From an uncultured Elusimicrobia bacterium (GTDB lineage: Bacteria; Elusimicrobiota; Elusimicrobia; FEN-1173): a DNA stretch of 64,000 bases. Below, in pieces: positions 27,608 to 51,434 of the stretch. Under the pieces are notes generated by a model, which saw nothing but the letters and a program-made list of their open reading frames with translations, made no database searches and was not told the DNA's origin. Numbering within the stretch: the stretch's first letter is position 1; each line of letters opens with the position of its first letter. Location of the stretch: assembly GCA_964484135.1 (NCBI GenBank), contig CAZAEL010000004.1, positions 19,164 through 83,163 of the forward strand, read 5' to 3'. The position numbers and the translations under genes were made by a program.

Positions 27608-28840
27608 ATGCCACGCGCCAAACCCGCTGACGGCTCCCTGACCCCCGCGGAGGAGCTGGACCTGCTGCACAAGATCACGGACATCATCGGGTCCACCCTG
27701 GACCTCAAGACCATCCTGCAGGAGATCGTCTCCCTGGTGAGCCGGATGACCAAGGCCGACGCCTGCTTCCTGTACCTGCACGAGCCCTCCCAGCAGAGCC
27801 TGGTGCTCTCCGCCTCCAAGACGCCTCACCCGGGGGAGATCGGCTCCCTCCGGCTGAAGCTCGGGGAAGGCATCACCGGCTGGGTGGCCCAGAACCGCAA
27901 GCCCCTGGCCGTTCCGGAACGGGCCCACGAGGACCCGCGCTTCAAGTTCTTCCAGAACCTGCCCGAGGACAGGTACGAGGCCTTCCTGTCCGTGCCCATC
28001 CTGGCGAAGGACAAAGTCATCGGCGTGATCAACGTCCAGCACCGCAAGCCCTACGCCCACAGCGAGCGGGCCGTGAAGCTCCTGACCACCATCGCCCAGC
28101 AGGTGGGCGGCGCCATCGAGAACGCGCGGCTCTACGAGGAGACCAAGCGCAAGGCCCAGGCCATCCAGACCCTTTCCGCCGTGTCCCACACCGTGGCGTC
28201 GGACCGGTATCCCCAGGAGGTCCTGCAGTTGATCGTGTCCATGACGGCGTCCCTGCTGGGGTCCAAGATCTGCTCCGTCATGCTGCTGGACGACGACGGG
28301 AAGGAACTGCACATCGCCGCCACCCAGTCCCTGTCCGAGGCGTACCGCAACAAGCCCCCCATCAAGGTGGGCCAGAGCATCTCCGGCCTGGCCGTCCAGC
28401 AGAAGGCCCCCATCACGGTCCCGGACGTGCGCAAGGACAAGCGGTTCTTCGCGCCGGACATCGCCGCGGCCGAGGGGCTGGTGTCACTCCTTTCCGTCCC
28501 CATGCTTTTCAAGGACAAGGCCGTCGGCGTGATCAACACCTACACCGCGCACGAGCACGCCTTCAGCAAGGAGGACATCGCGGTCCTCCAGGCCGTGGCC
28601 AACCAGTGCGCCTCGGCCATCGTCCACACGCGCCTGCTCTCCGAGAAGCTGGCGGCCCAGGAGGCCCTGGAAACGCGCAAGCTGGTGGAACGGGCCAAGG
28701 GCGTGCTGATGAAGACCCGCGGGCTCTCCGAGCCGGAGGCCTTCCGGGAAATCCAAAAACAGAGCATGGACCGGCGCAAGACCATGAAGGAAATCGCCGA
28801 AGCCGTGCTGCTCGCCGCGGAACTGGGTGAAAAAAAATAA
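27608..28840 (+). CDS. One-component GAF-GAF-ANTAR RNA-binding antiterminator
   Basis: Two GAF domains (GEGITGWVAQ...EAFLSVPI...VIGVINVQ; GQSISGLAV...SLLSVPM...AVGVINTY) and a C-terminal ANTAR (LETRKLVERAKGVLM...GLSEPEAFREIQKQSMDRRKTMKEIAEAVL); no receiver domain. Confidence 0.92.
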   Translation: MPRAKPADGSLTPAEELDLLHKITDIIGSTLDLKTILQEIVSLVSRMTKADACFLYLHEPSQQSLVLSASKTPHPGEIGSLRLKLGEGITGWVAQNRKPLAVPERAHEDPRFKFFQNLPEDRYEAFLSVPILAKDKVIGVINVQHRKPYAHSERAVKLLTTIAQQVGGAIENARLYEETKRKAQAIQTLSAVSHTVASDRYPQEVLQLIVSMTASLLGSKICSVMLLDDDGKELHIAATQSLSEAYRNKPPIKVGQSISGLAVQQKAPITVPDVRKDKRFFAPDIAAAEGLVSLLSVPMLFKDKAVGVINTYTAHEHAFSKEDIAVLQAVANQCASAIVHTRLLSEKLAAQEALETRKLVERAKGVLMKTRGLSEPEAFREIQKQSMDRRKTMKEIAEAVLLAAELGEKK

Positions 28841-28846
28841 AAAACC

Positions 28847-28919
28847 GTGCTTCTGTGCTGCAGTGCTTCCGTTGAAAGCATTGAACCGCAGGACCGCAGC
28901 ACCCCCGCACGGCAGCACT
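28847..28919. repeat. Octamer-repeat palindromic element, copy 1
   Basis: GTGCTTCT GTGCTGCA GTGCTTCC ... GCAGGACC GCAGCACC CCCGCACG GCAGCACT. Confidence 0.75.
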
Positions 28920-28924
28920 TATCT

Positions 28925-30613
28925 ATGATCCGCCTGTCCCTCGCCCAGATCAACAGCACCGTCGGCGACCTGCCCGGCAATTTGGAGAAGGTCCTGGACC
29001 ACGCCCGGCGCGCCCGCGAAGAGGGGGCCGACCTGGTCCTCTTCCCGGAGCTCTGCCTGAGCGGGTACCCCCCGGAAGACCTCCTGCTGCAGCCCCGCTT
29101 CACGGCCGACAACGCCGCCGCCCTGGAAAAGGCGGCCAAAACCCTTCCGCGCGGCCTCGCCGCGCTCGTGGGCTTCGCCGAGGGCGCCCCGGGCCGGCTC
29201 TACAACGCCGCCGCCCTGGTCCTGGACGGGCGGGTGCGGGCCGTGTACCGCAAACAGCGCCTGCCCAACTACGGCGTCTTCGACGAACAACGCTACTTCG
29301 TCGCCGGGCGAAAGCCCCTGCTGTTCCGGGTCCGGGACGTCACGGCCGGCGTCACCGTCTGCGAAGACATCTGGGTCCCCCGCGGCCCGGCCCTGCAGGC
29401 GGCCCGGGCGGGCGCCCGCCTCGTCCTCAACCTGTCCGCCAGCCCGTACCACGCGGGCAAAAGCTCGGAGCGCCTGAAAACGCTGAAAGACCGCGTGCGG
29501 GAGACGGGCGCGGCCTTCGCGTACTGCAACGCGGTGGGCGGGCAGGACGAGCTGGTGTTCGACGGCGGCAGCCTGGTCCTGGACGGCCGGAACCGCCTCC
29601 TGGCGCGGGCGCCCCAGTTCGAGGAGGCCCTCCTCACCGTGGACCTGGACCTTCCGGCCGCGCGCAAGCCGCCGCGGGGGGCGCTGGCCCTTTCCCTGCC
29701 CGCCGCCCCTCCCGCGCCCCTTTCGCCTCCTTCGCGGACGTCCGCGCTCCGCGCGGAGCCGCTTCCGGAGCTGGAAGAAATATACACCGCCCTGGTCACG
29801 GGCACCCGGGACTATCTGCGCAAGAACGGATTCCAAAAAGCGGTGATCGGCCTGTCCGGCGGCATTGACTCCTCGCTGGTGGCCTGCGTGGCCGCGGACG
29901 CCCTGGGGAAAGACAACGTGACCGGGGTCACGCTCCCCTCGAAATTCAACTCCACGGAGACCCGCTCGGACGCCCGGCTCCTGGCCGAAAACCTGGGGAT
30001 CGCGTTCCACAGCGTGCCCATCCAGGGGATCGTGGACGAATGCCTGAAGGCCCTGAAACCCCTCTTCGGGGACAGGCCCCCCGACATCGCCGAAGAAAAC
30101 CTGCAGGCCCGCGTGCGGGGGCTGCTCCTCATGGCCCTGTCCAACAAGTTCGGCTGGATGGTGCTGACCACGGGGAACAAGTCCGAGACCTCCGTCGGGT
30201 ACTGCACCCTGTACGGCGACACCGCCGGCGGGTTCGCCGTGATCAAGGACATCCCCAAGACCCTGGTGTACCGGCTCTGCGAATGGCGCAACGAAAAGGC
30301 CGCGCGGGCGCCGATCCCCCGGAGCGTCTTCGACCGTCCGCCCACGGCCGAACTCCGGCCCCACCAGACGGACCAGGACTCCCTGCCGCCCTACGACCTC
30401 CTGGACCGGATCATCGCCTTGTACGTGGAACAGGACAGGGATCTTTCGGACATCGCCAAGCGCGGCGTGCCCCCGGAGACCGCGGCCAGGACGCTGCGGC
30501 TCATCGACGCCAGCGAACACAAGCGCCGCCAGGCCCCGCCGGGCGTCAAGATCACGCCCCGGGCCTTCGGCCGCGACCGCCGCATGCCGCTCACCAATAA
30601 ATACAAAGGATAG
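28925..30613 (+). CDS. nadE: Glutamine-dependent NAD+ synthetase
   Basis: Nitrilase-like domain with E-K-C triad (FPEL, YRKQ, VCEDIW) plus synthetase motifs GLSGGIDSS, ENLQARVRG, TTGNKSE and PPTAELRP.Q.D.DSLP; start MIRLS 28925. Confidence 0.95.
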   Translation: MIRLSLAQINSTVGDLPGNLEKVLDHARRAREEGADLVLFPELCLSGYPPEDLLLQPRFTADNAAALEKAAKTLPRGLAALVGFAEGAPGRLYNAAALVLDGRVRAVYRKQRLPNYGVFDEQRYFVAGRKPLLFRVRDVTAGVTVCEDIWVPRGPALQAARAGARLVLNLSASPYHAGKSSERLKTLKDRVRETGAAFAYCNAVGGQDELVFDGGSLVLDGRNRLLARAPQFEEALLTVDLDLPAARKPPRGALALSLPAAPPAPLSPPSRTSALRAEPLPELEEIYTALVTGTRDYLRKNGFQKAVIGLSGGIDSSLVACVAADALGKDNVTGVTLPSKFNSTETRSDARLLAENLGIAFHSVPIQGIVDECLKALKPLFGDRPPDIAEENLQARVRGLLLMALSNKFGWMVLTTGNKSETSVGYCTLYGDTAGGFAVIKDIPKTLVYRLCEWRNEKAARAPIPRSVFDRPPTAELRPHQTDQDSLPPYDLLDRIIALYVEQDRDLSDIAKRGVPPETAARTLRLIDASEHKRRQAPPGVKITPRAFGRDRRMPLTNKYKG

Positions 30614-36941: not shown

Positions 36942-36970
36942 TTGACGAGGGCCGCTTTTTGTCCTATAGT
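36942..36970 (+). promoter_or_regulatory. sigma70 promoter
   Basis: TTGACG, 17 nt, TATAGT. Confidence 0.75.
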
Positions 36971-37051: not shown

Positions 37052-39019
37052 ATGTTCGAAAAAATCAAAGAGCTGATCTTCGGCAGGCCCAAGAACCCCC
37101 TGGACCCCCGGGTGTTCCACAACATCTCCCTGGTGGCTTTCTTCGCCTGGGTGGGGCTGGGCGCGGACGGATTGTCCTCCTCCTGTTACGGCCCGGAGGA
37201 GGCCTTCCACGCCCTGGGCCCCTACACCCATTTGGCCATCCCCCTGGCCCTGGCCGTGGCCGCCACGGTCTTCATCCTCTCCGCCGCCTACTCCCAGATC
37301 ATCGAACTGTTCCCCTCGGGCGGGGGCGGGTACCTGGTGGCCTCCAAACTGATCGGTCCCTACTCGGGGCTCATGTCCGGCTGCGCCCTGCTGGTGGATT
37401 ACATCCTCACGATCGCCATCTCCGTGGCCGCGGGCGTGGACGCGGTCTTCAGCTTCCTGCCGCCGGGGCTCGTCTCCTGGAAGGTCCATGCCACCATCCT
37501 CTGCCTCCTGGTCCTCATGACCTTGAACCTGCGGGGCGTCAAGGAATCCATCCTGGTCCTTACGCCCATCTTCGTCGTGTTCCTGTTCACCCACGGAATA
37601 ACGATCTTTTACGGCATTTTTTCCCACGGGACGGAGCTGCCGGCGCTCGTGACGGACACGGTGGCGCAGACCCGGTCGGGCATCTCCGAAATCGGCTTTT
37701 TTGCCATGGCCGTGATCTTCCTGCGGGCCTTCTGTCTGGGCGGCGGCACCTTCACCGGCATCGAAGCCGTCTCCAACGGCCTGCAAATCCTGCGGGAGCC
37801 CCGCGTGGAGACCGGCAAGCGGACCATGGTCTACATGGCCGTGTCCCTGGCCTTCACCGCGGGCGGCATCCTGGTGAGCTACATCCTCAACGACGTCAGC
37901 CACGTGCCGGGCCAGACGTTGAACGCCACCCTGGTGCACAGGATCTCCGACGCCTGGCCCGGCGGGCATGTCTTTTTCCTGATCACCCTCCTGTCGGAAG
38001 GCGCCCTGCTGTTCGTGGCCGCCCAGGCGGGCTTTCTGGCGGGCCCCCGGGTCATGTCCAACATGGCGGTGGACCACTGGCTGCCCCGCCGCTTCACCAA
38101 CCTGTCGGACCGGCTCGTGATCAAGGACGGCGTCCTGGTCCTCGGGCTGGCCGCCCTGGCCATGATCCTCTACACCGGCGCCTCGGTGCGGATCCTGGTG
38201 GTCATGTACTCCATCAACGTGTTCCTGACGTTCACCTTTTCCCAATTCGGGGTGGCGCGCCATTGGTTCAAGTCCCGGGAACCCGGCTGGCTCAAAAAAC
38301 TGACCATCATGTCCGCGGGCCTGCTGGTGACGGTGGTCATCCTCACCGCCACGATCATGATCAAATTCACGGAAGGGGGATGGGTCACGCTGTCCGTCAC
38401 CGGGACCCTCATGATCTTCTGTCTCTGGGTCCATCGCCATTACGCGGACACGGCCAAGGCCCTCCGCCATTTGGACGACATCCTGACCAACATCCCCCCC
38501 CCTGCGGCCAAGCCGGAGGTTGCGGCCAAGTCCCCCTCCAAGCCCGCGGCCATCCTCATGGTCAACGGGTACAACGGCATGGGCATCCACTCTTTCCTGG
38601 CCATCCACCGTTTCTTTCCCGGCCATTTCAAAAATTTCATCTTCCTTTCGGTGGGGGTGATAGACTCGGACCGGTTCAAGGGCAAGGCCGAGATCCAGAA
38701 CCTGGAGGAGTCCATCCAGAAGGACCTGGACAAATACGTGCGCCTGGCCAACAGCATGGGGCTGTACGCCGAATCCCGCATGCTGCTGGAAACGGACGTG
38801 ATCGACGGGCTCGAAAAACTGTGCCAGCAGACGGCGGAGGAATGGCCCAAGAAGGTGTTTTTCACCGGACAGCTCACGTTCGAAGGAGAAACCTTCTGGA
38901 CCCGGTTCCTGCACAACCAAACGTCCTTCACCCTCCAGCGCCGGCTGATCTTCGACGGCCTGGAGACCGTGATCCTGCCCATCCGGGTGAGGCTGAACCA
39001 GGCGCCCCTGCCCAAATAA
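37052..39019 (+). CDS. APC-superfamily permease, YdaO/KimA-like
   Basis: GADGLSSSCYGPEEAF, GGGGYLVA, TGIEAVSNG and YSINVFLTFT motifs; about 12 TMs plus a cytoplasmic C-domain. Confidence 0.85.
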   Translation: MFEKIKELIFGRPKNPLDPRVFHNISLVAFFAWVGLGADGLSSSCYGPEEAFHALGPYTHLAIPLALAVAATVFILSAAYSQIIELFPSGGGGYLVASKLIGPYSGLMSGCALLVDYILTIAISVAAGVDAVFSFLPPGLVSWKVHATILCLLVLMTLNLRGVKESILVLTPIFVVFLFTHGITIFYGIFSHGTELPALVTDTVAQTRSGISEIGFFAMAVIFLRAFCLGGGTFTGIEAVSNGLQILREPRVETGKRTMVYMAVSLAFTAGGILVSYILNDVSHVPGQTLNATLVHRISDAWPGGHVFFLITLLSEGALLFVAAQAGFLAGPRVMSNMAVDHWLPRRFTNLSDRLVIKDGVLVLGLAALAMILYTGASVRILVVMYSINVFLTFTFSQFGVARHWFKSREPGWLKKLTIMSAGLLVTVVILTATIMIKFTEGGWVTLSVTGTLMIFCLWVHRHYADTAKALRHLDDILTNIPPPAAKPEVAAKSPSKPAAILMVNGYNGMGIHSFLAIHRFFPGHFKNFIFLSVGVIDSDRFKGKAEIQNLEESIQKDLDKYVRLANSMGLYAESRMLLETDVIDGLEKLCQQTAEEWPKKVFFTGQLTFEGETFWTRFLHNQTSFTLQRRLIFDGLETVILPIRVRLNQAPLPK

Positions 39020-39026
39020 CCGCGTC

Positions 39027-39055
39027 TTGACACCCCGCGCCCCTTCTGGTAGGAT
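39027..39055 (+). promoter_or_regulatory. sigma70 promoter
   Basis: TTGACA, 17 nt, TAGGAT with TG extension. Confidence 0.8.
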
Positions 39056-39064
39056 GGGAAAGAA

Positions 39065-39153
39065 GGCACATCGTGGTGCCGTCAACGGGCCGGAGCACGA
39101 CGCCCGACGGACAAGGAAGTCCTCCTCATATGTCGCGACGAGGAGGATTTTTT
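39065..39153 (+). ncRNA. ANTAR-type dual-hexaloop leader with terminator
   Basis: P1 GGCAC-ATCGTG-GTGCC (39065-80); P2 GGAC-AAGGAA-GTCC (39109-22) overlapping terminator GTCCTCCTC..GAGGAGGA-T6. Confidence 0.8.
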
Positions 39154-39351
39154 ATGCCTTTCTGGATCCCCTGGCACACGGTTCCCGCCCTGGCGGCCTA
39201 TTTTTCGGACGAGGCCGCGGAAGAGGCCCCGGACCCCTGCGACCGCCCGCCGCCGCGGGGAGCCGGAACGGACGCGGCGCCGGACTTCCGGTTCTGGAAC
39301 AACTTCTTTGCGAGGAAATCCCATGAGCAGCCCCTCCGCCGATATTGTTGA
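39154..39351 (+). CDS. Possible 65-aa small protein (MPFWIPWHT...)
   Basis: GAGGAGG SD 7 nt before ATG 39154, buried in the terminator 3' arm; no recognisable motif. Confidence 0.3.
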   Translation: MPFWIPWHTVPALAAYFSDEAAEEAPDPCDRPPPRGAGTDAAPDFRFWNNFFARKSHEQPLRRYC

Positions 39352-41149
39352 GCTTTCCCCCGTCAAATACCTGCTGGGCTGCGCCGCGGCCGCCGCGGCC
39401 CTCCTCCTGATCGGGAAAATCCATCCCTTTCCGGCCTGGCTGGTGGCCGCGGAGGTCCTGGCCGCCGTCCTGGCCCTGTTCACCTTCGGCTCCATCAAGT
39501 ACCGTCTGGACAAAAACGCCCTCACGTACGGCGCCGCGCTCGTCATCGTCGCGACCTTCTGGGAAAGCTGGTGGAGCGGCTCGTCCCTGAAGTCGGCCCT
39601 GGCCGCCGGGGAATACGGCGCGCTCTGGGAATTCGCCCGGCACAATTTCCTGACCCTCCACGGACTGGACCGCCTCATCCACGCGGACACCATGCTGTTC
39701 ATCCTGGGGCTGACCTTCTTCGTGGCGGTCATCGCCCAGACGCGCCTCCTGGAAACCTCCAGCTTCGCGGTCCTGGACAAGCTCAAGGGCCGCGTGGTCC
39801 CGACCGTGGTCATCCTCACGGCGCTGGTGTCCGCGGCCTCCGGCGTCCTGGACGGCGTCTCCATGATCGGGCTCATGATCCGGACCCTGGTGATCATCCT
39901 GCTCCTGAGCGGGGCCGACAGGGCGGTCGTCGTTTACGCGGTCATGGTGTCAACGGTCGTGACCACGGTCTGCGGCATGTGGCTGGCGTACGGCGAGCCC
40001 CCCAACCTCATCATGAAAGCCAACCTCCACCCTTATCTGGACGACGCTTTTTTCCTGCGGTACTGCCTGCCCGCGGCCCTGGGGAGTTGGGCCATCGTGG
40101 CCTGGAACGTGGGACGGCGGCTGAAGGGCCGGAAAGTGGAGTTGTCGAAACTGGACATCCTGGACCGGCACGTGGCGGACGTGCGGTTCCTGCAGGCGTC
40201 CCGCCACGGGCAGGTGCTCACGCCCATCGGGTTCCTGGAAGGGAACAAAGAGGCGGTGGAAGGACACTACGAAGGGGTCCGAAAACGTCTCCTGGCCGGC
40301 GTGCCCCTGGGCGAGGCCCTGACCAATGAACGGGTCCCCAGGAGCGCGCGCCTGGAACTCATGGGCCGTTACCTGTCCGAGGACCTCGCCCAGACCGCGG
40401 ACGATTATTACGAACACGTGTACGGAAAGAACGACGGCCAGGCGGGCGAGTCCGCGGTGCGGCTGGGCCTGGCCCTGTCCCGCGTGCGGGGGCGGCGCGT
40501 CCTGGCCCAGCGGGCGGCGGCGCTGTCCTTCGTCCCCTTCATCGGGCTCCTCGTGGCCCACGCGGTCAACCACGATGTGCCGCTCTTTTTGGCCTCCTTC
40601 GCGGGGTTCGCGGCGGCCTTCCTGGGCATCGCGACTCTGCCCAAAACGCGGGGCCTGGCCCTGCGGGAGGCGGCCCATGAGTTCAAGGAGTACCTCTTCC
40701 TTTTGCCCCTCTTCCTGTCCATCACCCTGCTGCAGAAGACCGGCTTCTTCGGCCTGATCTCGGACCTCCTGCACCTGGGCATCGAGCGGCTGGGCGCCTC
40801 CCACGTGGCGTACGGCCAGTTCTGGTTCTGCACGGTGCTCTCCGCCCTCCTGGACAACAACGTGGTGGCGGACTTCGCGGGCCGGGCCCTCCAGGGCCTG
40901 AGCGTGAGCCTCCTCCACCTCTTCGCCATGGCCCAGATCGCGGGCTACGCCCTGGGCGGCTGCTGGACCCACATCGGCTCGGCCCAGTCCGTGGTGGCGT
41001 ATTCCTTCATCCAGCGGGAGATCGACGGGCGGTACACCCCCTTCCAGTGGATCAAGGCCATGACGCCGATCGTTCTGGAGATCGCCATTTGGATCAGCGT
41101 GGTCGTGTACGTGGAAGGGTGGCTCTTCCAAAAACTGCACATCCAATAA
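39323..41149 (+). CDS. IT-superfamily (NhaD/ArsB/SLC13-like) transporter with soluble insert
   Basis: ASGVLDGVS, GEPPNLI, SALLDNN and LGGCWTHIGSAQSVV repeat motifs; about 12 TMs; GAGGA RBS before ATG 39323. Confidence 0.75.
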   Translation: MSSPSADIVELSPVKYLLGCAAAAAALLLIGKIHPFPAWLVAAEVLAAVLALFTFGSIKYRLDKNALTYGAALVIVATFWESWWSGSSLKSALAAGEYGALWEFARHNFLTLHGLDRLIHADTMLFILGLTFFVAVIAQTRLLETSSFAVLDKLKGRVVPTVVILTALVSAASGVLDGVSMIGLMIRTLVIILLLSGADRAVVVYAVMVSTVVTTVCGMWLAYGEPPNLIMKANLHPYLDDAFFLRYCLPAALGSWAIVAWNVGRRLKGRKVELSKLDILDRHVADVRFLQASRHGQVLTPIGFLEGNKEAVEGHYEGVRKRLLAGVPLGEALTNERVPRSARLELMGRYLSEDLAQTADDYYEHVYGKNDGQAGESAVRLGLALSRVRGRRVLAQRAAALSFVPFIGLLVAHAVNHDVPLFLASFAGFAAAFLGIATLPKTRGLALREAAHEFKEYLFLLPLFLSITLLQKTGFFGLISDLLHLGIERLGASHVAYGQFWFCTVLSALLDNNVVADFAGRALQGLSVSLLHLFAMAQIAGYALGGCWTHIGSAQSVVAYSFIQREIDGRYTPFQWIKAMTPIVLEIAIWISVVVYVEGWLFQKLHIQ

Positions 41150-41176
41150 AAAAGCCGGCGGTTTTCGGCCGCCGGC
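41147..41176 (-). terminator. Intrinsic terminator between convergent genes
   Basis: A-run, then GCCGGCGG / CCGCCGGC 8-bp stem. Confidence 0.6.
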
Positions 41177-41214
41177 GCCCTTTGCCGTTCCTCCCCTCTC
41201 CCAAAAACGGACCC

Positions 41215-42684
41215 CTACCCCCTGGAGGACTCCTTGCCGGTCAACAACGAACGGACCCGGTCCAGCGTCCTGTCGTTGATCAACACCCAGAGGACATCCC
41301 CCTCCTCCAAAACCGTGTTCCCCCCCGGCACGATGAAAGCCTCCCCGCGGCACACCAGCGCCACCCGGCTTTCCTCCGGAAAATCCAGCTCCATGAGCGA
41401 CTTGCCGGCGATCTTGGCGCCGTAGGGCACGATGAAATCCTCCAGCCTCATGTCCACGCCTTCCAGGTCATCCATCTCCAGGGGAGACCGTCGGCGCGGC
41501 GCCAGGGGCACGTCCACGCCCAGCAGCCGCGCCACCCAGGGGATGGACGTCCCCTGGATCAGGGCCGACGTCAGGACGATGAAGAACACCAGGTCGAAGA
41601 TGACGTCCGCCTCCGGGACGCCCGCCAAACGGGGGAAGGTGGCCAGCACGATGGGGACGGCGCCGCGCAGCCCCACCCAGGCCACCATCAGCTTCTCGCG
41701 GACGCTCATCCCGGAGAACGACAGGGACAGGAACACGCTGGCCGGGCGGGCCGCGACGATCAGGAAGGCCGAGGCCAGGAGCCCCGGTCCCGCCACCGCG
41801 CCGAGCCGTTTGGGAAAGACCAAAAGCCCCAGGGCCAAAAACATGGCGATCTGCATGAGCCAGGCCAGCCCGTCGTGGAACCGCCCCAGGCTGCGCCGGT
41901 GCAGGAACCGGCTGTTTCCCAGCACCAGGCCGGCCACGTACACCGCCAAAAACCCGTTGCCCCCCACGGACGAAACCGCGCCGTAGATCAAGAGGACCAG
42001 GGCCATGGTGAGCGGCGGGTACAGGCCCTCGTGCTCCAGACGCATCCGGTTGACCAGGAGGACCGCGCCTTTCCCCAGCGCCCAGCCCGCGGCCAAACCC
42101 ACGGACATCTGGAGGACGAAAGAAAGGACCATCCCGCCCCAGCCGGCTTCCGGCCGCGTCATGAGCCCCAGGAAGGCGGTGGTCAGGAACACGGCCATGG
42201 GGTCGTTGCTGCCGGATTCCAGCTCCAACAGGGGCTTGAGCCGCCCCTTGAGGCTCACGTTTTTGGACCGGAGCACGGAGAAGACCGCGGCCGCGTCCGT
42301 GGAAGCCACGATGGAGCCCAAGAGGAACCCTTCCAGCCAGGAAAACCCCAGGGCGAACACGGCGAAGGCCCCCACCAGGAGCGCCGACACCAGGACTCCG
42401 CCGCTGGCCAGAGACAGCCCCTGCCAAAGGACGGGCCGCACGCTCCGCCAGTCCGTCTCCAGGCCGCCGGCGAACAGGATGTAGCACAACGCGACCACGC
42501 CCAGGAACTGGGCCTGCCAGGGGTCGTTGAAATAGATGCCTCCGGGACCGTCGGACCCCGCCAGCATCCCGATGGCCAAAAACAAGAGCAGCGCCGGCAC
42601 GCCGAGGCGGCCGGAGGCCTTGCTGGCGACGACGCTCAGGGCCACCAGCGCCGCCACCGCCAGCAGGATATGCTCGATGGGCAT
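41215..42684 (-). CDS. K+/H+ antiporter NhaP2 (CvrA) family
   Basis: GMLAGSDGPGGI, ASTDAAAVFS, LELESGSNDP and WVGLRGAVPIVLA motifs plus C-terminal TrkA_C; start 42684 or 42693. Confidence 0.92.
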   Translation of the reverse strand: MPIEHILLAVAALVALSVVASKASGRLGVPALLLFLAIGMLAGSDGPGGIYFNDPWQAQFLGVVALCYILFAGGLETDWRSVRPVLWQGLSLASGGVLVSALLVGAFAVFALGFSWLEGFLLGSIVASTDAAAVFSVLRSKNVSLKGRLKPLLELESGSNDPMAVFLTTAFLGLMTRPEAGWGGMVLSFVLQMSVGLAAGWALGKGAVLLVNRMRLEHEGLYPPLTMALVLLIYGAVSSVGGNGFLAVYVAGLVLGNSRFLHRRSLGRFHDGLAWLMQIAMFLALGLLVFPKRLGAVAGPGLLASAFLIVAARPASVFLSLSFSGMSVREKLMVAWVGLRGAVPIVLATFPRLAGVPEADVIFDLVFFIVLTSALIQGTSIPWVARLLGVDVPLAPRRRSPLEMDDLEGVDMRLEDFIVPYGAKIAGKSLMELDFPEESRVALVCRGEAFIVPGGNTVLEEGDVLWVLINDRTLDRVRSLLTGKESSRG

Positions 42685-42767
42685 CGTCGTCATGCCATAT
42701 TTCTACACTGTTTGCCGCGCGATTGCAAACGGCGCGAAAAAATCGGGCGCGGCCCGGCATTTTTTCC

Positions 42768-42796
42768 TTGACATAAAAACGGAGCCGGTATATAAT
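42768..42796 (+). promoter_or_regulatory. sigma70 promoter of amtB1-glnK1
   Basis: TTGACA, 17 nt, TATAAT: perfect consensus. Confidence 0.88.
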
Positions 42797-42802
42797 AGAC
42801 GC

Positions 42803-42969
42803 GAGTACAGAGTAGTACTCCTTATCATATCAGGACGCCGACGTCCTCCTTGAGGCTCATGCCCGGGGAGGATTTTTTATTTTGTCGGCGGCCGCTGGGC
42901 CGTTCCCGAGACGAGGGCGTCTCGACTCTTAGTTTGGGGGCTAAGAAGCGAGGCGCCTCTTTTGTTTTT
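42803..42969 (+). ncRNA. ANTAR-type leader with two tandem terminators
   Basis: P1 GAGTAC-AGAGTA-GTACTC; P2 GGAC-GCCGAC-GTCC overlapping terminator 42843-42883; third hexaloop CGAGAC-GAGGGC-GTCTCG overlapping terminator 42913-42969. Confidence 0.8.
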
Positions 42970-43036
42970 CGGAGAGGACGCTCCCGCCGCCCACACGGGG
43001 GGTCAAACGGGCTCAAATTCACTAAGGAGGAAATCC

Positions 43037-44572
43037 ATGTCACGCTTCAAGAAAAGATGGCTGGGCGGGATACTGCTCTCGCTCATCGCCGTGGGGGTTC
43101 TGACCCCCGCGTTGTTCGCAGAAGAAACGGTCGCGGCCGCTGCGGAAGCCGCGGGACCGAGCCTCGCCGACCAGGTGGCTTCCCTCACCCAGCAGGTGGC
43201 GGACCGGAAAGTGGCGGCCGACACCCTCTGGGTGCTGGTCACCGCGTTCCTGGTGTTCTGGATGAACGCGGGCTTCGCCCTGGTGGAATCGGGCATGTGC
43301 CGCGCCAAGAATGCGGTCAACATCCTGTCCAAGAACTTCATCGTGTTCGCCTGCTCCTCCATCGCGTTCTACGTGCTGGGCTGGGGCCTGATGTTCGGGG
43401 ACGGGAACGGCTTCGTCGGCACCCAGGGCCTTTGGTTCTTGGGCGGGGCGGACAACAGCCCGGCCACCGGCGACGCGTACCGGGGCGTGTATTCGTCCAT
43501 CGCCTGGACGGGCGTGCCCCTCGGCGCCAAGTTCTTCTTCCAATTGGTGTTCGCGGGGACCGCCGCGACCATCGTGTCCGGCTGCGTGGCGGAACGCATC
43601 AAGTACATCAGCTTCATCCTGTTCTCCTTCCTGCTGGTGGGCATCACCTATCCCGTCATCGGCCACTGGATCTGGGGCGGCGGCTGGCTGGCCCAAAAGG
43701 GCTTCTGGGACTTCGCCGGCTCCACCGTGGTCCACACCGTGGGCGGCGTGGCGGGCCTGGCGGGCATCCTGCTCCTGGGTCCCCGCATCGGCAAGTACCG
43801 TCCGGACGGCACCCCCAACGCCATCCCGGGCCACAACATGACCTCGGCGACGCTGGGCTGCCTCATCCTGTGGCTGGGCTGGTTCGGGTTCAACCCCGGC
43901 TCCACCATGGCGGCCGACCCCGGCGCCATCTCCCACATCCTGAACACCACCAACCTGGCGGCCGCGGCCGGCCTGTTGACGGCCACCCTCACCGCCTGGA
44001 TCGTGATGGGCAAGCCGGACCTGGGCATGACCATCAACGGCTGCCTGGCGGGCCTGGTGGCCATCACGGCCCCCTGCGCCTTCGTGAGCCTGCCGGCCTC
44101 CATCGTCATTGGCGGCATCGGCGGCGTCCTGGTGGTCTTCGCGGTGCTCTTCTGGGACAAGCTCAAGATCGACGACCCCGTGGGCGCCCTGGCCGTGCAC
44201 CTGGTGAACGGCATCTGGGGCACCCTGTCCGTGGGCCTCTTCGCCAAGGACAAGATCACGGGCGTGGCCACCGGCAACGGCCTCTTCAACGGCGGCGGCT
44301 TCGGCCTGCTGACCACCCAGGTCATCGGGTCCTTGAGCGCCATCGCCTTCACCCTGGTGACCGCCGTCATCTTCTGGTCCGTCATCAAAGCCGTCCTCGG
44401 CATGCGGGTGTCCCGCGACGAGGAAATCCGCGGCCTGGACATTGACGAGCACGGCATGGAGGCCTACGCCGGCTTCCAGATCTACCTGACGGAATACGGC
44501 CTCAGCCCCGTCTCGGGCGGCAACGGCGGCTCGGCGCCCAAGCTCGAAAAAGAGCTGGCCGGGAGGAAATAA
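43037..44572 (+). CDS. amtB: Ammonium transporter
   Basis: AAGGAGG RBS, signal peptide, [24 protein letters not shown] and AVHLVNG (both pore His present). Confidence 0.96.
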
Positions 44573-44574
44573 CC

Positions 44575-44916
44575 ATGAAAATGATCATCGCCATCATCCA
44601 GCCCCACAAGATCGCGGACGTCAAGAAGGCCCTGGACGACGCCCAGATCCACCTCATGACGGTCTCCAACGTCCTCGGGGCGGGGCGGCAGAAGGGGTAC
44701 GAAGAGAGCTACCGCGGCGCGAAGTACGAGATCAACCTCCTCAAGAAGGTCCGTCTCGACATCGCGGTGAACGACGACTACGTGGACGCCGCCATCTCGG
44801 CCATCTCCAGATCGGCCAAGACCGGCAACATCGGGGACGGCAAGATCTTCGTCATGCCCCTCGAGGAAGTCGTCCGCATCCGCACCAACGAGCGCGGCAA
44901 GGTGGCCATCGGCTGA
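44575..44916 (+). CDS. glnK: P-II nitrogen regulator (Tyr51 present)
   Basis: GAGRQKG...YRGAKY T-loop, [19 protein letters not shown]; follows amtB. Confidence 0.95.
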
Positions 44917-44943
44917 ACAGGCCCTGACCTCCGCCGTTCATTC

Positions 44944-44983
44944 AAGGGCGCGGGAGAGGAATAACCTCTCCCGCGCCCTTTCG
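44944..44983 (+). terminator. Intrinsic terminator after glnK1
   Basis: 16-bp perfect stem AAGGGCGCGGGAGAGG / CCTCTCCCGCGCCCTT with AATAA loop; short T tail. Confidence 0.7.
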
Positions 44984-44984
44984 C

Positions 44985-45014
44985 TTGACAAGCTTTCGGG
45001 ACCTATGTTATAGT
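44985..45014 (+). promoter_or_regulatory. sigma70 promoter of amtB2-glnK2
   Basis: TTGACA, 18 nt, TG-T-TATAGT. Confidence 0.8.
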
Positions 45015-45022
45015 CCCAGCCC

Positions 45023-45141
45023 GGACACAGTGTCGTGTCCGCCAAAGCAACCCTCAACCAAGAAGTCTCTTCTCAAGAAGCCTGTCCGGCCTCTCTCCGG
45101 GGTGTGAGGGGCCGGCCGTTGCTCGAGACAGAGCCGTCTCG
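45023..45141 (+). ncRNA. ANTAR-type dual-hexaloop leader with large structured spacer
   Basis: P1 GGACAC-AGTGTC-GTGTCC (45023-40); spacer closed by GCAAC/GTTGC (45047-45122); P2 CGAGAC-AGAGCC-GTCTCG (45124-41). Confidence 0.7.
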
Positions 45142-45262
45142 CCTAAAACAAAGCCCGCGGGGGTCCTTCCCCGGCGGGCGCGTTCCCCATCACAGAACCG
45201 TCATAACGATGTCCGGGCCCGGCCCGGGCGTCCTTACTTCCTATAAGGGGGTCTTGGGTATT

Positions 45263-46630
<1,368 letters not shown>

Positions 46631-46643
46631 AAAAGAGGACGCC

Positions 46644-46985
46644 ATGAAATACATCGTCGCCATCATTCAACCCGACAAGCTCGACGAGGTCCTGGAGGAG
46701 CTGGAGAAAAAGGAGATCCACCTGGTCACCGTGTCCAGCGTCATGGGGCGCGGCCGGCAGAAGGGCATCTCCCAGGTGTACCGCAGCCACAAGGAGGCGG
46801 GCAGCCTGCTGAAGAAGACCAAGCTGGAGATCGCGGTCAACGACGAGTTCGTGAAGCCCGCCATGGAAGCCATCTACAAGGGCGGCCACACCGGCAACGT
46901 GGGGGACGGCAAGATCTTCGTTCTGGACCTGAAGGAATGCCAGCGGATCAGCAACGGCGAGACCGGCGGCCCCGCCATCGGCTGA
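46644..46985 (+). CDS. glnK: P-II family protein (Tyr51 absent)
   Basis: GRGRQKG, YRSHKE T-loop, TGNVGDGKIFV; follows amtB2. Confidence 0.92.
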   Translation: MKYIVAIIQPDKLDEVLEELEKKEIHLVTVSSVMGRGRQKGISQVYRSHKEAGSLLKKTKLEIAVNDEFVKPAMEAIYKGGHTGNVGDGKIFVLDLKECQRISNGETGGPAIG

Positions 46986-47052
46986 AAACATGCCTTCGGC
47001 CCTCTTCCCGACGGAAAACCGGACCACGGCCGTGCCCCCGGCGATTTTTTTC

Positions 47053-47081
47053 TTGACAAAAAAACCGGGGCGTGCTAAAGT
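47053..47081 (+). promoter_or_regulatory. sigma70 promoter of glnA
   Basis: TTGACA, 17 nt, TAAAGT with TG extension. Confidence 0.82.
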
Positions 47082-47089
47082 ATTGTCAA

Positions 47090-47185
47090 GCACAAGGTCG
47101 TGCGCATTCCATAATCCGGTTGTCCACGGAAGCGGGACGATGACGTCCTCCTCAAAGCTGTCTTTGGGGAGGACTTTTTGTTTTT
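47090..47185 (+). ncRNA. ANTAR-type dual-hexaloop leader with terminator
   Basis: P1 GCAC-AAGGTC-GTGC (47090-103); P2 GGAC-GATGAC-GTCC (47135-48) overlapping terminator GTCCTCCTCAAAG-CTGT-CTTTGGGGAGGAC-TTTTTGTTTTT. Confidence 0.82.
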
Positions 47186-47268: not shown

Positions 47269-48762
47269 ATGGAAGCCATAAAGGAAAGATCGGTCGTCAA
47301 GAGCGTCGCCAGCGCCAACGGCGGGCGCGCCGCCAAGCCCAAGAACGCCAAGGAAGCCATCGAGCTGGCCCGCAAGTCCGGGGTCAAGATCGTGGACTAC
47401 AAGTTCATGGACCTGGTGGGGACGCTGCAGCACATCTCCTACTCCGTGGAAAAACTGAAGGAAAGCGTTTTCGAGGAGGGCATCGGCTTCGACGGCTCCA
47501 GCATCCGGGGCTTCCAGGCCATCAACGAGTCCGACATGCTGCTCATGCCGGACCCGACCACCGCCTTCATCGACCCGGTCCTCAAGGTCCCGACCATCTC
47601 CTTCCTCTGCAACGTGAAGGACCCGGTGACCGGCAAGGGTTACAAAAAGGACCCGCGGAGCATCGCCCAGGCCGCCGAGGAATACCTGATCAAGACCGGC
47701 ATCGCCACCGAGAGCTGGTGGGGCCCGGAGGCGGAGTTCTTCGTGTTCGACAACGTCCGCTTCGACGTGGGCCAGCGGTCCTCCTTCTACGAGGTGGACT
47801 CCGAGGAAGGCATCTGGAACGCCGGCAAGAACGGCGGGGAAGAGGCCAACCTGGGGTACAAGATCCGCAACAAGGAGGGGTATTTCCCCACCCCGCCCAT
47901 GGACACCCTGCAGGACTTCCGCTCCGAGGCCATCCTCCGGATGATGGAGGCGGGTCTGGACATCGACCTGCACCACCACGAGGTGGCCACCGCGGGCCAG
48001 GGCGAGATCGGCGTGGGCGTCCGCACCCTCACCTCCGCCGCCGACCAGATGGCCCTCTACAAGTACATCCTGAAAAACGTGGGGCGCGAACACGGCAAGA
48101 CGGTGACCTTCATGCCCAAGCCCCTGTACGGCGACAACGGCACCGGCATGCACACCCACCAGTCCCTGTGGAAGAGCGGCAAGCCCCTGTTCCACGACCC
48201 CAAGGGGTACGGCTGCGTGTCCCAATTGGCGCTGTGGTACATCGGCGGCCTCTTGAAGCACGCCCCGGCCCTCTGCGCCATCTGCAACTCCACCACGAAC
48301 TCCTACCGGCGCCTGGTGCCGGGCTACGAAGCCCCCACCAACCTGGCCTATTCGGCCCGGAACCGGTCGGCCGCGGTGCGCATCCCCATGTATTCCAACG
48401 AGCCCAAGCAGAAACGCATCGAGTACCGCCCGCCGGACGCGGCCTCCAACCCGTACCTGGCCTTCGCCGCGCTGCTCATGGCCGGCTTGGACGGCATCCA
48501 GAACAAGATCGACCCGGGCAAGCCCTTCGAGGCGGACATCTTCGAGCTCCACGGCGAGGAGGCCAAGGCCATCCCGCAGGTGCCGGGCTCCCTGGAAGAG
48601 GCCCTGGACGCGCTGGAGAAGGACAACGCCTTCCTGACAAAGGGCGGCGTCTTCTCCAAGGAGTTCATCGAGACCTGGATCGACTACAAGCGGAAGAAGG
48701 AGCACGACTTCGTGCGGCTCCGGCCCCATCCGGCGGAGTTCTTCCTGTACTTCGACTGCTGA
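47269..48762 (+). CDS. glnA: Glutamine synthetase type I
   Basis: [47 protein letters not shown] and RNRSA.VRIP motifs. Confidence 0.97.
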
Positions 48763-48808
48763 TCCGCTCAGAGCCGTAACCCCGCGGAGATCCCCGCGGG
48801 CGCAGGGT

Positions 48809-48890
48809 CCGCACAAGGTTGTGCGGAAAAGATCCGAACGAAGGCGTTCGTCGCTTCTCATGAAGGGGACGAACGCCTTCGTTGTTTTTT
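48809..48890 (+). ncRNA. ANTAR-type dual-hexaloop leader with terminator (between glnA and porin)
   Basis: P1 CCGCAC-AAGGTT-GTGCGG; 8-nt linker; P2 CGAAC-GAAGGC-GTTCG embedded in the 5' arm of a 20-bp terminator (48838-48882) plus TGTTTTTT. Confidence 0.85.
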
Positions 48891-48910
48891 AGCAAAAACA
48901 GGGGTCTTTC

Positions 48911-50056
48911 ATGGCCCACAAAATGAAAGGGGAGGTTCACATCATGAGGTTAAACAAAATCAACGCGAAGCTGTTGAGGGCTCTGGGAGCGCTCCTGTTG
49001 CCCGCGGCCCTGGCCAGCCAGGGGTTCGCCGAGGGGCCGTCCATCGGCGGCTTCGTGGACTTCGGGTACAACTACAACTTCAACGGCATGGCCGCCAACA
49101 CGCTCCGGTCGTTCGACAGCAAATCCAACAGCTTCACGCTGCAGAACGCCGAGGTCGTGGTGTCGGGCAAATCCGACAAGGACGTGGCCTATCGGGTGGA
49201 CCTGGATTACGGGTTCGACGCCACCAACACGAACTACCTGAACAACAACGCCGGCGACGAGTTCGACATCCAGCAGGCCTTCATCACCGTCCCTTGCCCC
49301 TTGACGGGCGGGGCCTTTACGGCCGGAAAATTCGTCACGCTGCACGGGGCCGAAGTGATCGAGGCCAAGGACAACTTCAACACGTCCCGCGGGTTCCTGT
49401 TCAACTACGCCATCCCGCTCCACCACACGGGCGTGAAGTACGACAAGGCCTTCGGGGACTTGGCCCTGACGGGCGCCGTGGTCAACGGCTGGGACAACCT
49501 GTATGAAAACAACAAGGGCAAAACGTTCCACGGCATGGCCGCCTACACCTTCTCCCCGAAGCTGTTCGCCAGCCTGGGAGGCACCTACGGCCCGGAACAG
49601 GCTTCCCCCACGGCGGCCGGCGTCAGCACGGAAAAAAACAGCCGCGGCCTGGTGGACGCCCTGGTGAAGGCCATGCCCACGGACAAACTCACCCTGATCG
49701 CCAACTGGGACTGGGGCGTGGAGGAGGGCCTCACCCCGGCCGGGACCGACACCACCCAAAACTGGGCGGGCCTGGCGTTGCACGCCAATTACATGCTCAC
49801 CGACGTCTACTCCGCGGCTCTGCGCTGGGAGACCTTTGACGACGAAGGGTCCCGCACCGCGGCCTTGACGCCGGCGGCCGTGAACGGTCAAGTGCTCCAC
49901 TCTCTGACCGCCACCCTCCAGCACAAGATGAACGACGTGATCACGCGTCTGGAGTTCCGGCAGGACACGTCCTCCAAAAAAGTCTTTGTGGACGACAAGG
50001 GCATGCCGGACGACAGCCAGAGCACCGTCGGGTTGCAGTGGATCTACGCCTTCTGA
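48911..50056 (+). CDS. Outer-membrane beta-barrel porin (putative bbp2/OmpL-like)
   Basis: Signal peptide; GGFVDFGYNYNFN, GKFVTLHGAEVI...N.N.SR.FLF..AIP..HTG motifs; C-terminal YAF; start 48911 or 48944. Confidence 0.8.
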   Translation: MAHKMKGEVHIMRLNKINAKLLRALGALLLPAALASQGFAEGPSIGGFVDFGYNYNFNGMAANTLRSFDSKSNSFTLQNAEVVVSGKSDKDVAYRVDLDYGFDATNTNYLNNNAGDEFDIQQAFITVPCPLTGGAFTAGKFVTLHGAEVIEAKDNFNTSRGFLFNYAIPLHHTGVKYDKAFGDLALTGAVVNGWDNLYENNKGKTFHGMAAYTFSPKLFASLGGTYGPEQASPTAAGVSTEKNSRGLVDALVKAMPTDKLTLIANWDWGVEEGLTPAGTDTTQNWAGLALHANYMLTDVYSAALRWETFDDEGSRTAALTPAAVNGQVLHSLTATLQHKMNDVITRLEFRQDTSSKKVFVDDKGMPDDSQSTVGLQWIYAF

Positions 50057-50234: not shown

Positions 50235-51434
50235 ATGAACGCACGCCAGATCATCCAGGACGGGAAATTGGACGTCTTCTTCCGGCCCGTGTTCTCGGTC
50301 AAGCAAAAAAGCCTGGCCGGGCACGAGGCCTTCTGCCGCGCCCCGGGCGGACGCGAGGGCGGCGACGACCTGGGCCGAATGGCCGCCAGGGAGGGGCTGG
50401 CCCTGGAGATGGACCGCCTCCGCCGCAAGGCGTCCCTGGAAGGGTTCAAGAACGCCTGTGCCGGAACAGACCTGATCCTCTTCCTCAATTTCTCCTCGGA
50501 GATCGTGGACCAGGGCGTGGTGGGATCCAACCGCCTTTTCGACCTGGTCAGGTCCCTGGGCCTGGCGCCGCACAACATCGTGATCGGGATCAACGAGTCC
50601 GGGGCCGAGGACACCGCCTCCCTCAAAAAGTTCATCGAGACGCACAAAGGCCACGGCTTCCTCATCGCCCTGGACCGGATCGGCGCGGGCCACTCCAACC
50701 TGAACCGGATCTCCCTGGCCCGGCCCGATATTTTGAAAATGGACCCTTCCCTGGTCCGCGGCATCCACCGGGACCACTACCACAGGGAAATCCTCCGGTC
50801 CTTCACGCAACTCTCCAAAAAATTGGGGGCCCTGGTCGCGGCCGACGGGGTGACGGAAGAAGAGGAATTGCTCGCCCTCCTGGAACTGGGGGTGGACATG
50901 GCCCAGGGGCCCTATTTCGGGGAAACGCGGGAGATCGGCGAGGCCGACGAGCGTCGATGGGAAGAGAAACTGGGAGGGGTGGCCGCCAAATCCAAGAACT
51001 TCCTGGTGGAGAAGACCCGGCGGGAGAAAGCCCTTCACAACGAGCAGGACGCCCTGATGGGAGAAATCCTGCGGGAGCTGTCAAAGGCGGTTCCGGAGGA
51101 GTTCGACGCCGCTTTAAACGAGTGGGTGCGGCGGCACCCGTCCGTGGAATGCGTGTACGTGCTGGACGAGGAAGGCGCGCAGATCAGCGAAACCGTCGCC
51201 CCGCCCGGCAGGCCCTTCAAACAGAACGGCCTGTTCCGTCCGGCCCGCAAAGGGGCGGACCATTCCTTCAAGGACTACTATTACCTGCTGACCGACACCT
51301 TCGTGAACCGGTTCCGGACGGAGCCCTACATCTCCCTGGCTTCCGGGAACCTCTGCGTCACCCTCTCCGGCCTTTTCCGGGACGCGAGAAGCCGGCAACA
51401 CGTTCTCTGCCTGGACGTTCCGACATCCCCCTAA
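50235..51434 (+). CDS. Degenerate EAL-domain protein with C-terminal PAS/Cache-like domain (YkuI-like)
   Basis: EAF, FLNFS, IALDRIG, LKMD and AQG.YFG motifs; C-terminal VYVLDEEG.QIS...EPYIS..SG..CVT.S. Confidence 0.82.
   Translation: MNARQIIQDGKLDVFFRPVFSVKQKSLAGHEAFCRAPGGREGGDDLGRMAAREGLALEMDRLRRKASLEGFKNACAGTDLILFLNFSSEIVDQGVVGSNRLFDLVRSLGLAPHNIVIGINESGAEDTASLKKFIETHKGHGFLIALDRIGAGHSNLNRISLARPDILKMDPSLVRGIHRDHYHREILRSFTQLSKKLGALVAADGVTEEEELLALLELGVDMAQGPYFGETREIGEADERRWEEKLGGVAAKSKNFLVEKTRREKALHNEQDALMGEILRELSKAVPEEFDAALNEWVRRHPSVECVYVLDEEGAQISETVAPPGRPFKQNGLFRPARKGADHSFKDYYYLLTDTFVNRFRTEPYISLASGNLCVTLSGLFRDARSRQHVLCLDVPTSP

Follow-up and report, generated by a model that had tools for sequence, protein, structure and literature searches.

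A stretch of 64,000 nucleotides (nt) from an uncultured Elusimicrobia bacterium (lineage FEN-1173 of the Elusimicrobiota; assembly GCA_964484135.1, contig CAZAEL010000004.1, positions 19,164 to 83,163 of the forward strand), hereafter the window, carries a nitrogen regulon that we attribute to antitermination by an ANTAR-domain protein. With a probability of roughly 60%, its leaders act through a hexaloop hairpin overlapping the terminator (P2) that is essential and an upstream hexaloop hairpin (P1) that is auxiliary, the two being joined by a loose and mostly single-stranded spacer. The first-pass annotation had instead proposed that in three leaders a folded domain is inserted between the hexaloops. 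All three regions are 5′ leaders within a + strand gene cluster, ahead of a CitMHS-like transporter gene (site A), amtB2 (site C) and glnA (site D); amtB1 and a porin gene have the short-spacer leaders B and E. The coordinates, sequences and hairpins of that annotation are correct as given (Table 1), and the disagreement concerns what the spacers do.

Leaders A, B, D and E have a common layout of hexaloop P1, spacer, hexaloop P2, strong hairpin and U run, and in each of them the 3′ arm of P2 doubles as the 5′ arm of an intrinsic terminator, making the two folds mutually exclusive. Dual hexaloops are thus found in four of the six leaders, with tandem stem-loops of at least 3 base pairs (bp) and 6-nt loops at every one of the four. 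In a fifth leader, that of an amino-acid permease gene, a single hairpin overlaps the terminator and its 3′ arm likewise forms the terminator 5′ arm; the arm GUCCUCCUC is common to the permease leader and sites A, B and D. When folded without constraint the full leaders adopt the terminator form (z-scores of -3.2 to -7.2). The window has 24 hexaloop hairpins of the type AC-RNNGNN-GU with stems of at least 4 bp, where shuffles give 7.6 +/- 2.8, and leaders A to E account for 11 of them. Both P1 and P2 are closed by AC..GU, and G at loop position 4 is invariant. Loop position 1 is A in every window P1 and in the P2 of A and C, and G in the P2 loops of B (GCCGAC), D (GAUGAC) and E (GAAGGC); of 18 leaders, a set picked by a pattern permitting R, 13-14 have A there and 4-5 have G. 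The published ANTAR alignment also has GAUGAA loops, and P1, with closing pairs YAC..GU, agrees with its consensus SYAC-AAHGRH-GUDB (supplement of PMC3369931).

The identity of these sites is supported by a covariance model, R1, constructed in Infernal from 14 leaders of other genomes with spacers of 4-22 nt and with zero window sequence. Run with filters off over the 64-kb window, R1 finds exactly four sites, namely the porin (37.3 bits), amtB1 (28.0 bits), CitMHS (25.5 bits) and glnA (23.3 bits) leaders, the next-best match scoring 13.8 bits. Sites A and D are matched via 15-17-nt insertions at E-values of 0.002-0.006 in the window, and orthologous leaders with 26- and 30-nt spacers are also found in relatives (E 0.004-0.04 in 0.8 Mb); whole-database matches to such long-spacer leaders would be marginal. 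A model trained elsewhere that matches A and D, together with a GAF-GAF-ANTAR gene in the window, bears out the earlier assignment of the sites as ANTAR-type targets. In Rfam, leaders and spacers match no family, whether at the gathering threshold or at E-values up to 5, and the same search finds no known riboswitch in the inserts. A search of 185k genomes with the pattern GCAC-R..G..-GUGC, N5-35, GGAC-R..G..-GUCC has about five real leaders among the matches listed, with spacers of 10-22 nt; as most matches are period-3 coding matches in GC-rich genomes, it says nothing on spacer lengths. Leaders of the ANTAR type have been described for P-II, ammonium-transporter and glutamine-synthetase genes (PMC3369931), as has the Geobacter GnfR system (PMC2995071), and the system is therefore not new in kind. 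Given that ANTAR antitermination of nitrogen genes is well known, such a regulon was to be expected in a phylum that has received little study.

The candidate regulator is a protein of two GAF domains and an ANTAR domain encoded in the window. GAF domains of the PtsP/EI-Ntr class sense glutamine and 2-oxoglutarate. The first GAF domain of the regulator is closest to the GAF domain of this class (3ci6, E 2e-23), and its ANTAR part has matches to Rv1626, NasR and EutV chains. About 8 kb separate the gene from the first leader, which lies downstream of it, and it immediately precedes the gene for a glutamine-dependent NAD synthetase (28847-30613). A P2-like hairpin within it (28570-28589) was taken as chance on account of its coding location and its lack of a terminator.

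The spacers of the window differ widely in length, measuring 28 nt in A and 30 nt in D, with the hexaloop hairpins of C standing 82 nt apart, alongside 11-12 nt in B and 7-8 nt in E, the two leaders whose linkers had already been called short. Described spacers span 5-12 nt in the Enterococcus faecalis eut leaders (PMC3369931), up to ~22 nt in the published alignment (supplement of PMC3369931) and 2-25 nt in a curated actinobacterial set (PMC8164766), and the distances in A, D and C do lie beyond the 5-12 nt and 2-25 nt ranges, as the first-pass annotation had claimed. The published seed definition terms the linker 'variable' (PMC3369931), and a short linker is therefore typical rather than strictly defining. 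The accompanying claim that standard searches would miss these sites holds in part: R1 recovers A and D, scoring them a few bits below the short-spacer sites of the window, while a manual filter at <=25 nt drops both and C is missed altogether. True ANTAR leaders can thus have spacers of 26-33 nt, and curation with such a filter loses sites that a covariance model retains.

Spacer folding was compared with 200 shuffles and compactness was assessed by Boltzmann sampling. The best fold of spacer A pairs C39086-G39092 with C39098-G39099 and G39102-G39106 (-9.9 kcal/mol, z -1.12, 23/200 shuffles equal or better); it includes the GGGC/GCCC pairing proposed earlier and lacks the outer GUC/GAC, and 29% of shuffles are as compact. 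For spacer D the best fold is a 4-bp UCCG/CGGA hairpin and not the proposed GCAUUCC/GGAAGC stem (z -0.70, 41/200 shuffles equal), with a fraction of 0.49 of shuffles as compact. The 82-nt region of site C gives z -0.76 (41/200 shuffles), and its compactness, with P1 and P2 forced, is matched by 0.05 of shuffles. Of all the long spacers compared, in the window and elsewhere, only those of A and C are predicted to be compact. The expectation that the spacers are more structured or compact than chance is not borne out, with z-scores of -0.7 to -1.1 and stems within what shuffles give. Long spacers from other genomes, whose contigs are designated by L numbers and which include relatives and other phyla, behave alike. 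Of six such spacers, of 26-53 nt, all fold no better than shuffles, and the five among them run for compactness do not exceed shuffles in it. In particular, folding is no better than in shuffles for the amtB leader of L336 (26 nt), the porin leaders of L190 (32 nt) and L191 (33 nt), and the leaders of L012 (41 nt) and L004 (53 nt). Compactness was run on the last four, with L336 tested for folding only, and none of the four is more compact than its shuffles. Over six leaders from other genomes the fraction of shuffles as compact is 0.49-0.91, which makes these leaders if anything less compact than shuffles.

Comparison between relatives separates the length of the glnA spacer, which is kept, from its structure, which is not. 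The relatives were syntenic contigs from the GlnA 90%-identity cluster of the window, used in place of GlnK2 homologues, which are too conserved for separating close relatives. In two close strains P1, P2 and the terminator are unchanged, and the 5′ arm of the proposed stem reads UCAC in place of UUCC without compensation; one of the two also has GGUAGC in place of GGAAGC in the 3′ arm, again uncompensated. The L091 and L339 leaders form a more distant lineage, although their GlnA belongs to the same cluster. They keep P1 (GCAC..GUGC), P2 and exactly 30 nt between the two, and their spacer, GCCGAUUCACAUUUCCAUAGAUUUUCCACC, has few G residues and is predicted to lack pairing. Over the five 30-nt glnA variants P1 and P2 are 100% paired, the proposed stem 57% and the best-fold hairpin 55%, with no compensatory change supporting either spacer stem. 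For glnA the covariation analysis that the first-pass annotation suggested as a check has therefore gone against its stem, which shows no covariation or does not form. Elsewhere in the cluster the spacer is 4 nt in the L329 lineage, and in the L336 lineage the glnA leader (2995-3085) has P2 and a terminator without P1. Overall, the P1-P2 distance in relatives is 4-33 nt, or P1 is absent. A shared long-spacer motif was considered and dropped: the window and L091 both have UUCCAUA, which reads UCACAUA in the sister strains, and no motif was established.

Site A offers less material for comparison. Among 80 CitMHS loci fetched, almost none has a leader, the permease and CitMHS genes being adjacent there. 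Apart from one sister strain, site A is without an orthologue, because the two genes abut with no leader between them in other Elusimicrobia. The whole promoter and leader of site A (39020-39322) is an insertion, L110, L112, L117 and L123 having only ~20-40 nt between those genes. The sister contig, L328, has two substitutions in the spacer, neither of them on a best-fold pair, and as a single sister is therefore uninformative on the stem. Site A also has an open reading frame of 65 codons (39154-39351) that begins directly after the terminator U run and extends across the start codon of the CitMHS gene. It remains in frame in L328 despite a one-codon indel, has a third-position G+C (GC3) of 0.79 and may encode a small protein or leader peptide.

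The amtB2 leader stands apart from the others. The 82-nt region between its first two hairpins contains GCAAC (45047-51), GUUGC (45118-22) and CCGGCCUCUC..GAGGGGCCGG, and its inner 10-bp hairpin is robust in the folds. Folding the piece in isolation gives the GCAAC/GUUGC closing stem, which is lost in the full leader. Sequence and fold reveal no U-tract terminator here, nor any terminator that P2 overlaps, and R1 gives only partial matches at noise level (9.8 and 8.4 bits) rather than one dual-hairpin site. The 76-nt domain described for this leader is consequently upheld in its sequences and inner hairpin; its closing stem is absent from the full-leader fold, and the leader gains no support as a dual-hexaloop antiterminator. 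The stem of the second amtB2 hairpin (CGAGAC..GUCUCG) is identical to that of the third amtB1 hairpin, where it is the antiterminator of the second terminator, and the position of the 82 nt in MAFFT alignments is ambiguous, some setting them against the P2-T1 module of tandem leaders and others treating them wholly as an insertion. The amtB2 leader may be a decayed or re-purposed tandem attenuator, or may act via something other than intrinsic termination. A reading of its spacer as a Rho-utilisation site was set aside as speculation, the C-over-G excess reaching only the 93rd percentile of the window. L088 likewise has an amtB leader that lacks a terminator (7593-7804), with ~83 nt between its first two hairpins and a third hexaloop hairpin, and there the intervening sequence is not compact. 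The amtB2 leader of the window (45022-45262) and the amtB leader of L088 have ~210-240 nt and 2-3 hexaloop hairpins, with spacings of 82 vs 83 nt in two distant genomes. The amtB1 leader (42803-42969) is a tandem attenuator, and L089 (7840-7988) and the syntenic amtB leader of L336 (909-1075) have an equal layout.

Our results suggest a model in which the regulon comprises the amino-acid permease, the CitMHS-like transporter, amtB1-glnK1, amtB2-glnK2, glnA and the porin. Each gene or operon would have a leader that defaults to its intrinsic terminator and, with the exception of the porin gene, its own constitutive sigma70-like promoter. Sigma70-like promoters are found ahead of five leaders, beginning at 36942, 39027, 42768, 44985 and 47053, against 1.7 in shuffles of the region. 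The same scan found none for the porin gene, which may be co-transcribed with glnA via an intercistronic attenuator. The GAF-GAF-ANTAR protein, probably sensing nitrogen status via its PtsP/NifA-like GAF domain, would bind the hexaloop hairpins (consensus AC-RNNGNN-GU), and closed P2 would then block pairing of the terminator 5′ arm and lead to read-through by RNA polymerase. P1 would serve as an auxiliary recruiting hairpin with a distance to P2 that is loosely constrained in this clade, so that the 28- and 30-nt spacers would be long, mostly single-stranded tethers. Judged from sequence and predicted folds, the spacer stems described earlier are pairings that any GC-rich 30-mer offers rather than a conserved inserted domain, and a stem seen in such a 30-mer is in itself no evidence for a folded domain.

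Several points weigh against a loose tether, and some of them favour the bridging model of the first-pass annotation, in which a functional insert, in the form of a self-closing hairpin or domain, restores the distance required by an ANTAR dimer and may add a second input. EutV antitermination is abolished by a spacer of 3 or 14 nt, or by the addition of 20 nt (PMC3369931, PMC8934654). Such strict spacing makes bridging attractive (PMC8934654), is at odds with a spacer length conserved without conserved structure, and implies that an unstructured 30-nt spacer would need a different geometry or a sequential hand-over. The predicted 7-bp hairpin of spacer A reduces its effective path to about 6-8 nt, comparable to the 7-12 nt of the short leaders, and L328 is still predicted to form a closely similar hairpin after its two substitutions. 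That two diverged glnA lineages both keep exactly 30 nt may point to a constraint beyond that of a loose tether, and the comparative sample is small, with five glnA variants from two lineages and one sister for site A. The bridging model can also claim the amtB2 region, which is more compact than 95% of its shuffles. Against this stand bridging stems that are no stabler than shuffles at any of the three sites, a glnA stem broken by uncompensated changes in close strains and absent from L091 and L339 at the same length, an L088 counterpart of the amtB2 leader that is not compact, the five long spacers of other genomes that fold no better than chance, and, at amtB2, the lack of a terminator with which P2 could compete. 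A general role for self-closing stems in restoring the proximity of P1 and P2 is accordingly not supported, and we consider the bridging model unlikely. An inserted hairpin might still bridge at site A or in the amtB2 leader; as a feature of site A only, a bridging hairpin is plausible from the predicted fold and possible.

Two further readings concern the spacer and P1. In one, the spacer would pair with the 5′ arm of P2 when protein is absent, acting as an anti-antiterminator that tightens termination and yields a three-state attenuator. The terminator-form best fold of site A does pair GUC 39081-83 with GAC of the P2 5′ arm, that of the glnA leader pairs GUUGUCC 47119-25 with GGACGAU of P2, and the three natural glnA-spacer substitutions of the close strains all spare its paired positions, lying either beyond the helix or in the loop. 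Yet shuffles with at least as many spacer-P2 cross-pairs make up 0.15-0.25 at the window sites and 0.83-1.0 for L091, L190 and L336, and the helix has no compensatory change, which leaves the reading improbable. A comparably poor prospect is that P1 of long-spacer leaders is not used and that P2 acts alone, P1 being a relic or a 5′ stabilising hairpin. The window permease and L336 glnA leaders indeed lack P1, and EutV binds single hairpins at similar affinity (PMC8934654); but every 30-nt glnA variant retains the P1 stem GCAC/GUGC and the hexaloop G4 despite near-total divergence of the spacer, a P1-like hairpin would occur by chance within 120 nt upstream with a probability of ~0.007 (from the hairpin density of the window), and in vivo EutV and NasT require the two loops together (PMC3369931, PMC10783516). 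We therefore retain an essential P2 with an auxiliary P1 on a loose spacer as the preferred reading. Its more specific form, which we put forward only tentatively and hold to be somewhat doubtful, is that the GAF-GAF-ANTAR protein of this clade uses hexaloops 26-33 nt apart across an unstructured spacer (30 nt in two glnA lineages), with some leaders lacking P1, and that the short-spacing rule of EutV is then not general. If so, a different binding geometry or a sequential hand-over would be indicated. How GAF-GAF-ANTAR as opposed to REC-ANTAR proteins engage two hairpins is a simple, testable question.

Table 1. Genes, promoters and leader elements of the gene cluster and its candidate regulator, in window positions.
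Feature	Position	Strand	Basis
GAF-GAF-ANTAR protein, 410 aa	27608-28840	+	Pfam ANTAR PF03861, E 1.1e-22, plus two GAF domains
Sigma70-like promoter, permease leader	36942-36970	+	
Permease leader: single hairpin GGGC-UAAGGCA-GUCC, 7-nt loop, overlapping terminator and U run, no P1	36985-37031	+	sequence, fold
Amino-acid permease gene	37052-39019	+	Pfam
Sigma70-like promoter, site A leader	39027-39055	+	TTGACA, 17 nt, TAGGAT
Site A P1 GGCAC-AUCGUG-GUGCC, hexaloop AUCGUG	39065-39080	+	fold, hairpin count, R1
Site A spacer, 28 nt, predicted imperfect 7-bp hairpin 39086-39106	39081-39108	+	
Site A P2 GGAC-AAGGAA-GUCC, antiterminator hairpin, 3′ arm shared with terminator	39109-39122	+	fold, R1
Site A intrinsic terminator UCCUCCUC..GAGGAGGA plus U6	39120-39153 (hairpin 39120-39147)	+	full-leader best fold, z -4.0
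CitMHS-like transporter gene	39323-41149	+	Pfam
amtB1 module 1: P1 42803-42820, spacer 11-12 nt, P2 42833-42846, terminator T1 and U run	42803-42879	+	R1 28.0 bits
amtB1 module 2: CGAGAC-GAGGGC-GUCUCG (42907-42924), exclusive with terminator T2 and U run	42907-42969	+	fold z -4.2
amtB1	start ~43058, end 44572	+	Pfam
glnK1, after amtB1	44575-44916	+	Pfam
amtB2 hairpin 1 CGGACAC-AGUGUC-GUGUCCG	45022-45041	+	hairpin count, fold
amtB2 82-nt region, inner 10-bp hairpin 45087-45116, holding the 76-nt domain described earlier	45042-45123	+	fold
amtB2 hairpin 2 CGAGAC-AGAGCC-GUCUCG, no overlapping terminator	45124-45141	+	sequence, fold
amtB2	45263-46630	+	Pfam
glnK2, after amtB2	46644-46985	+	Pfam
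Sigma70-like promoter, glnA leader	47053-47081	+	sequence
Site D (glnA) P1 GCAC-AAGGUC-GUGC, hexaloop AAGGUC	47090-47103	+	hairpin count, R1
Site D spacer, 30 nt; length kept, structure not	47104-47133	+	
Site D P2 GGGAC-GAUGAC-GUCCU, hexaloop GAUGAC, antiterminator hairpin	47134-47149	+	R1
Site D intrinsic terminator and U run	47145-47179 (hairpin 47145-47174)	+	fold
glnA	47269-48762	+	Pfam
Porin leader (E): P1 48808-48827, spacer 7-8 nt, P2 48835-48850 inside terminator 5′ arm, then U run	48808-48891	+	R1 37.3 bits
BBP2 porin gene	48911-50056	+	Pfam

The window has a G+C content of 66%, and its porin and CitMHS proteins have their best relatives in metagenome-assembled genomes of Elusimicrobiota at 55-70% identity, the reference collection holding no genome close to the window. 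Downstream of the glnA stop codon is a GC-rich palindrome without a U run, CCCGCGG-AGAUC-CCGCGGG (48770-48800). The order glnA, porin, EAL-domain protein, rRNA adenine dimethylase and CinA is kept across related contigs (window 50235-51434; L329, L336 and L343).

The leaders described here most closely resemble those of EutV/eut of E. faecalis, NasR/nasF, AmiR/amiE and NasT/NalA, with which they share tandem hairpins whose hexaloops have G as the fourth nucleotide and A (or G) as the first. As in EutV-type systems, the 3′ arm of P2 is common with an intrinsic terminator, the targets belong to nitrogen metabolism and the ANTAR protein is encoded nearby. Distinguishing features include the 28- and 30-nt spacers, compared with 5-12 nt in eut and a maximum of ~22 nt in the published alignment, a P2 closed by GGAC..GUCC rather than GC..GC, several loops that begin with G, and a GAF-GAF-ANTAR regulator in place of the REC-ANTAR or NIT-ANTAR proteins of those systems. 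Unlike them, this regulon also holds leaders without P1 and leaders without a terminator. Actinobacterial ANTAR-target RNAs (PMC8164766) similarly combine dual hexaloop stem-loops with a variable linker and are in some cases terminator-independent; in most cases they extend over the ribosome-binding site and regulate translation, whereas the amtB2 hairpins lie ~120 nt upstream of the start codon. A further parallel is GnfK/GnfR of Geobacter sulfurreducens (PMC2995071), in which premature intrinsic termination in the leaders of nitrogen genes, glnK and amtB among them, is overcome by an ANTAR regulator, and a conserved motif, there CAGGCAANGGCGCC, overlaps the terminator 5′ arm. GnfR is a kinase-fed response regulator acting at leaders with RpoN-dependent promoters and no long spacers are reported for it (PMC2995071), whereas the promoters of the window are sigma70-like.

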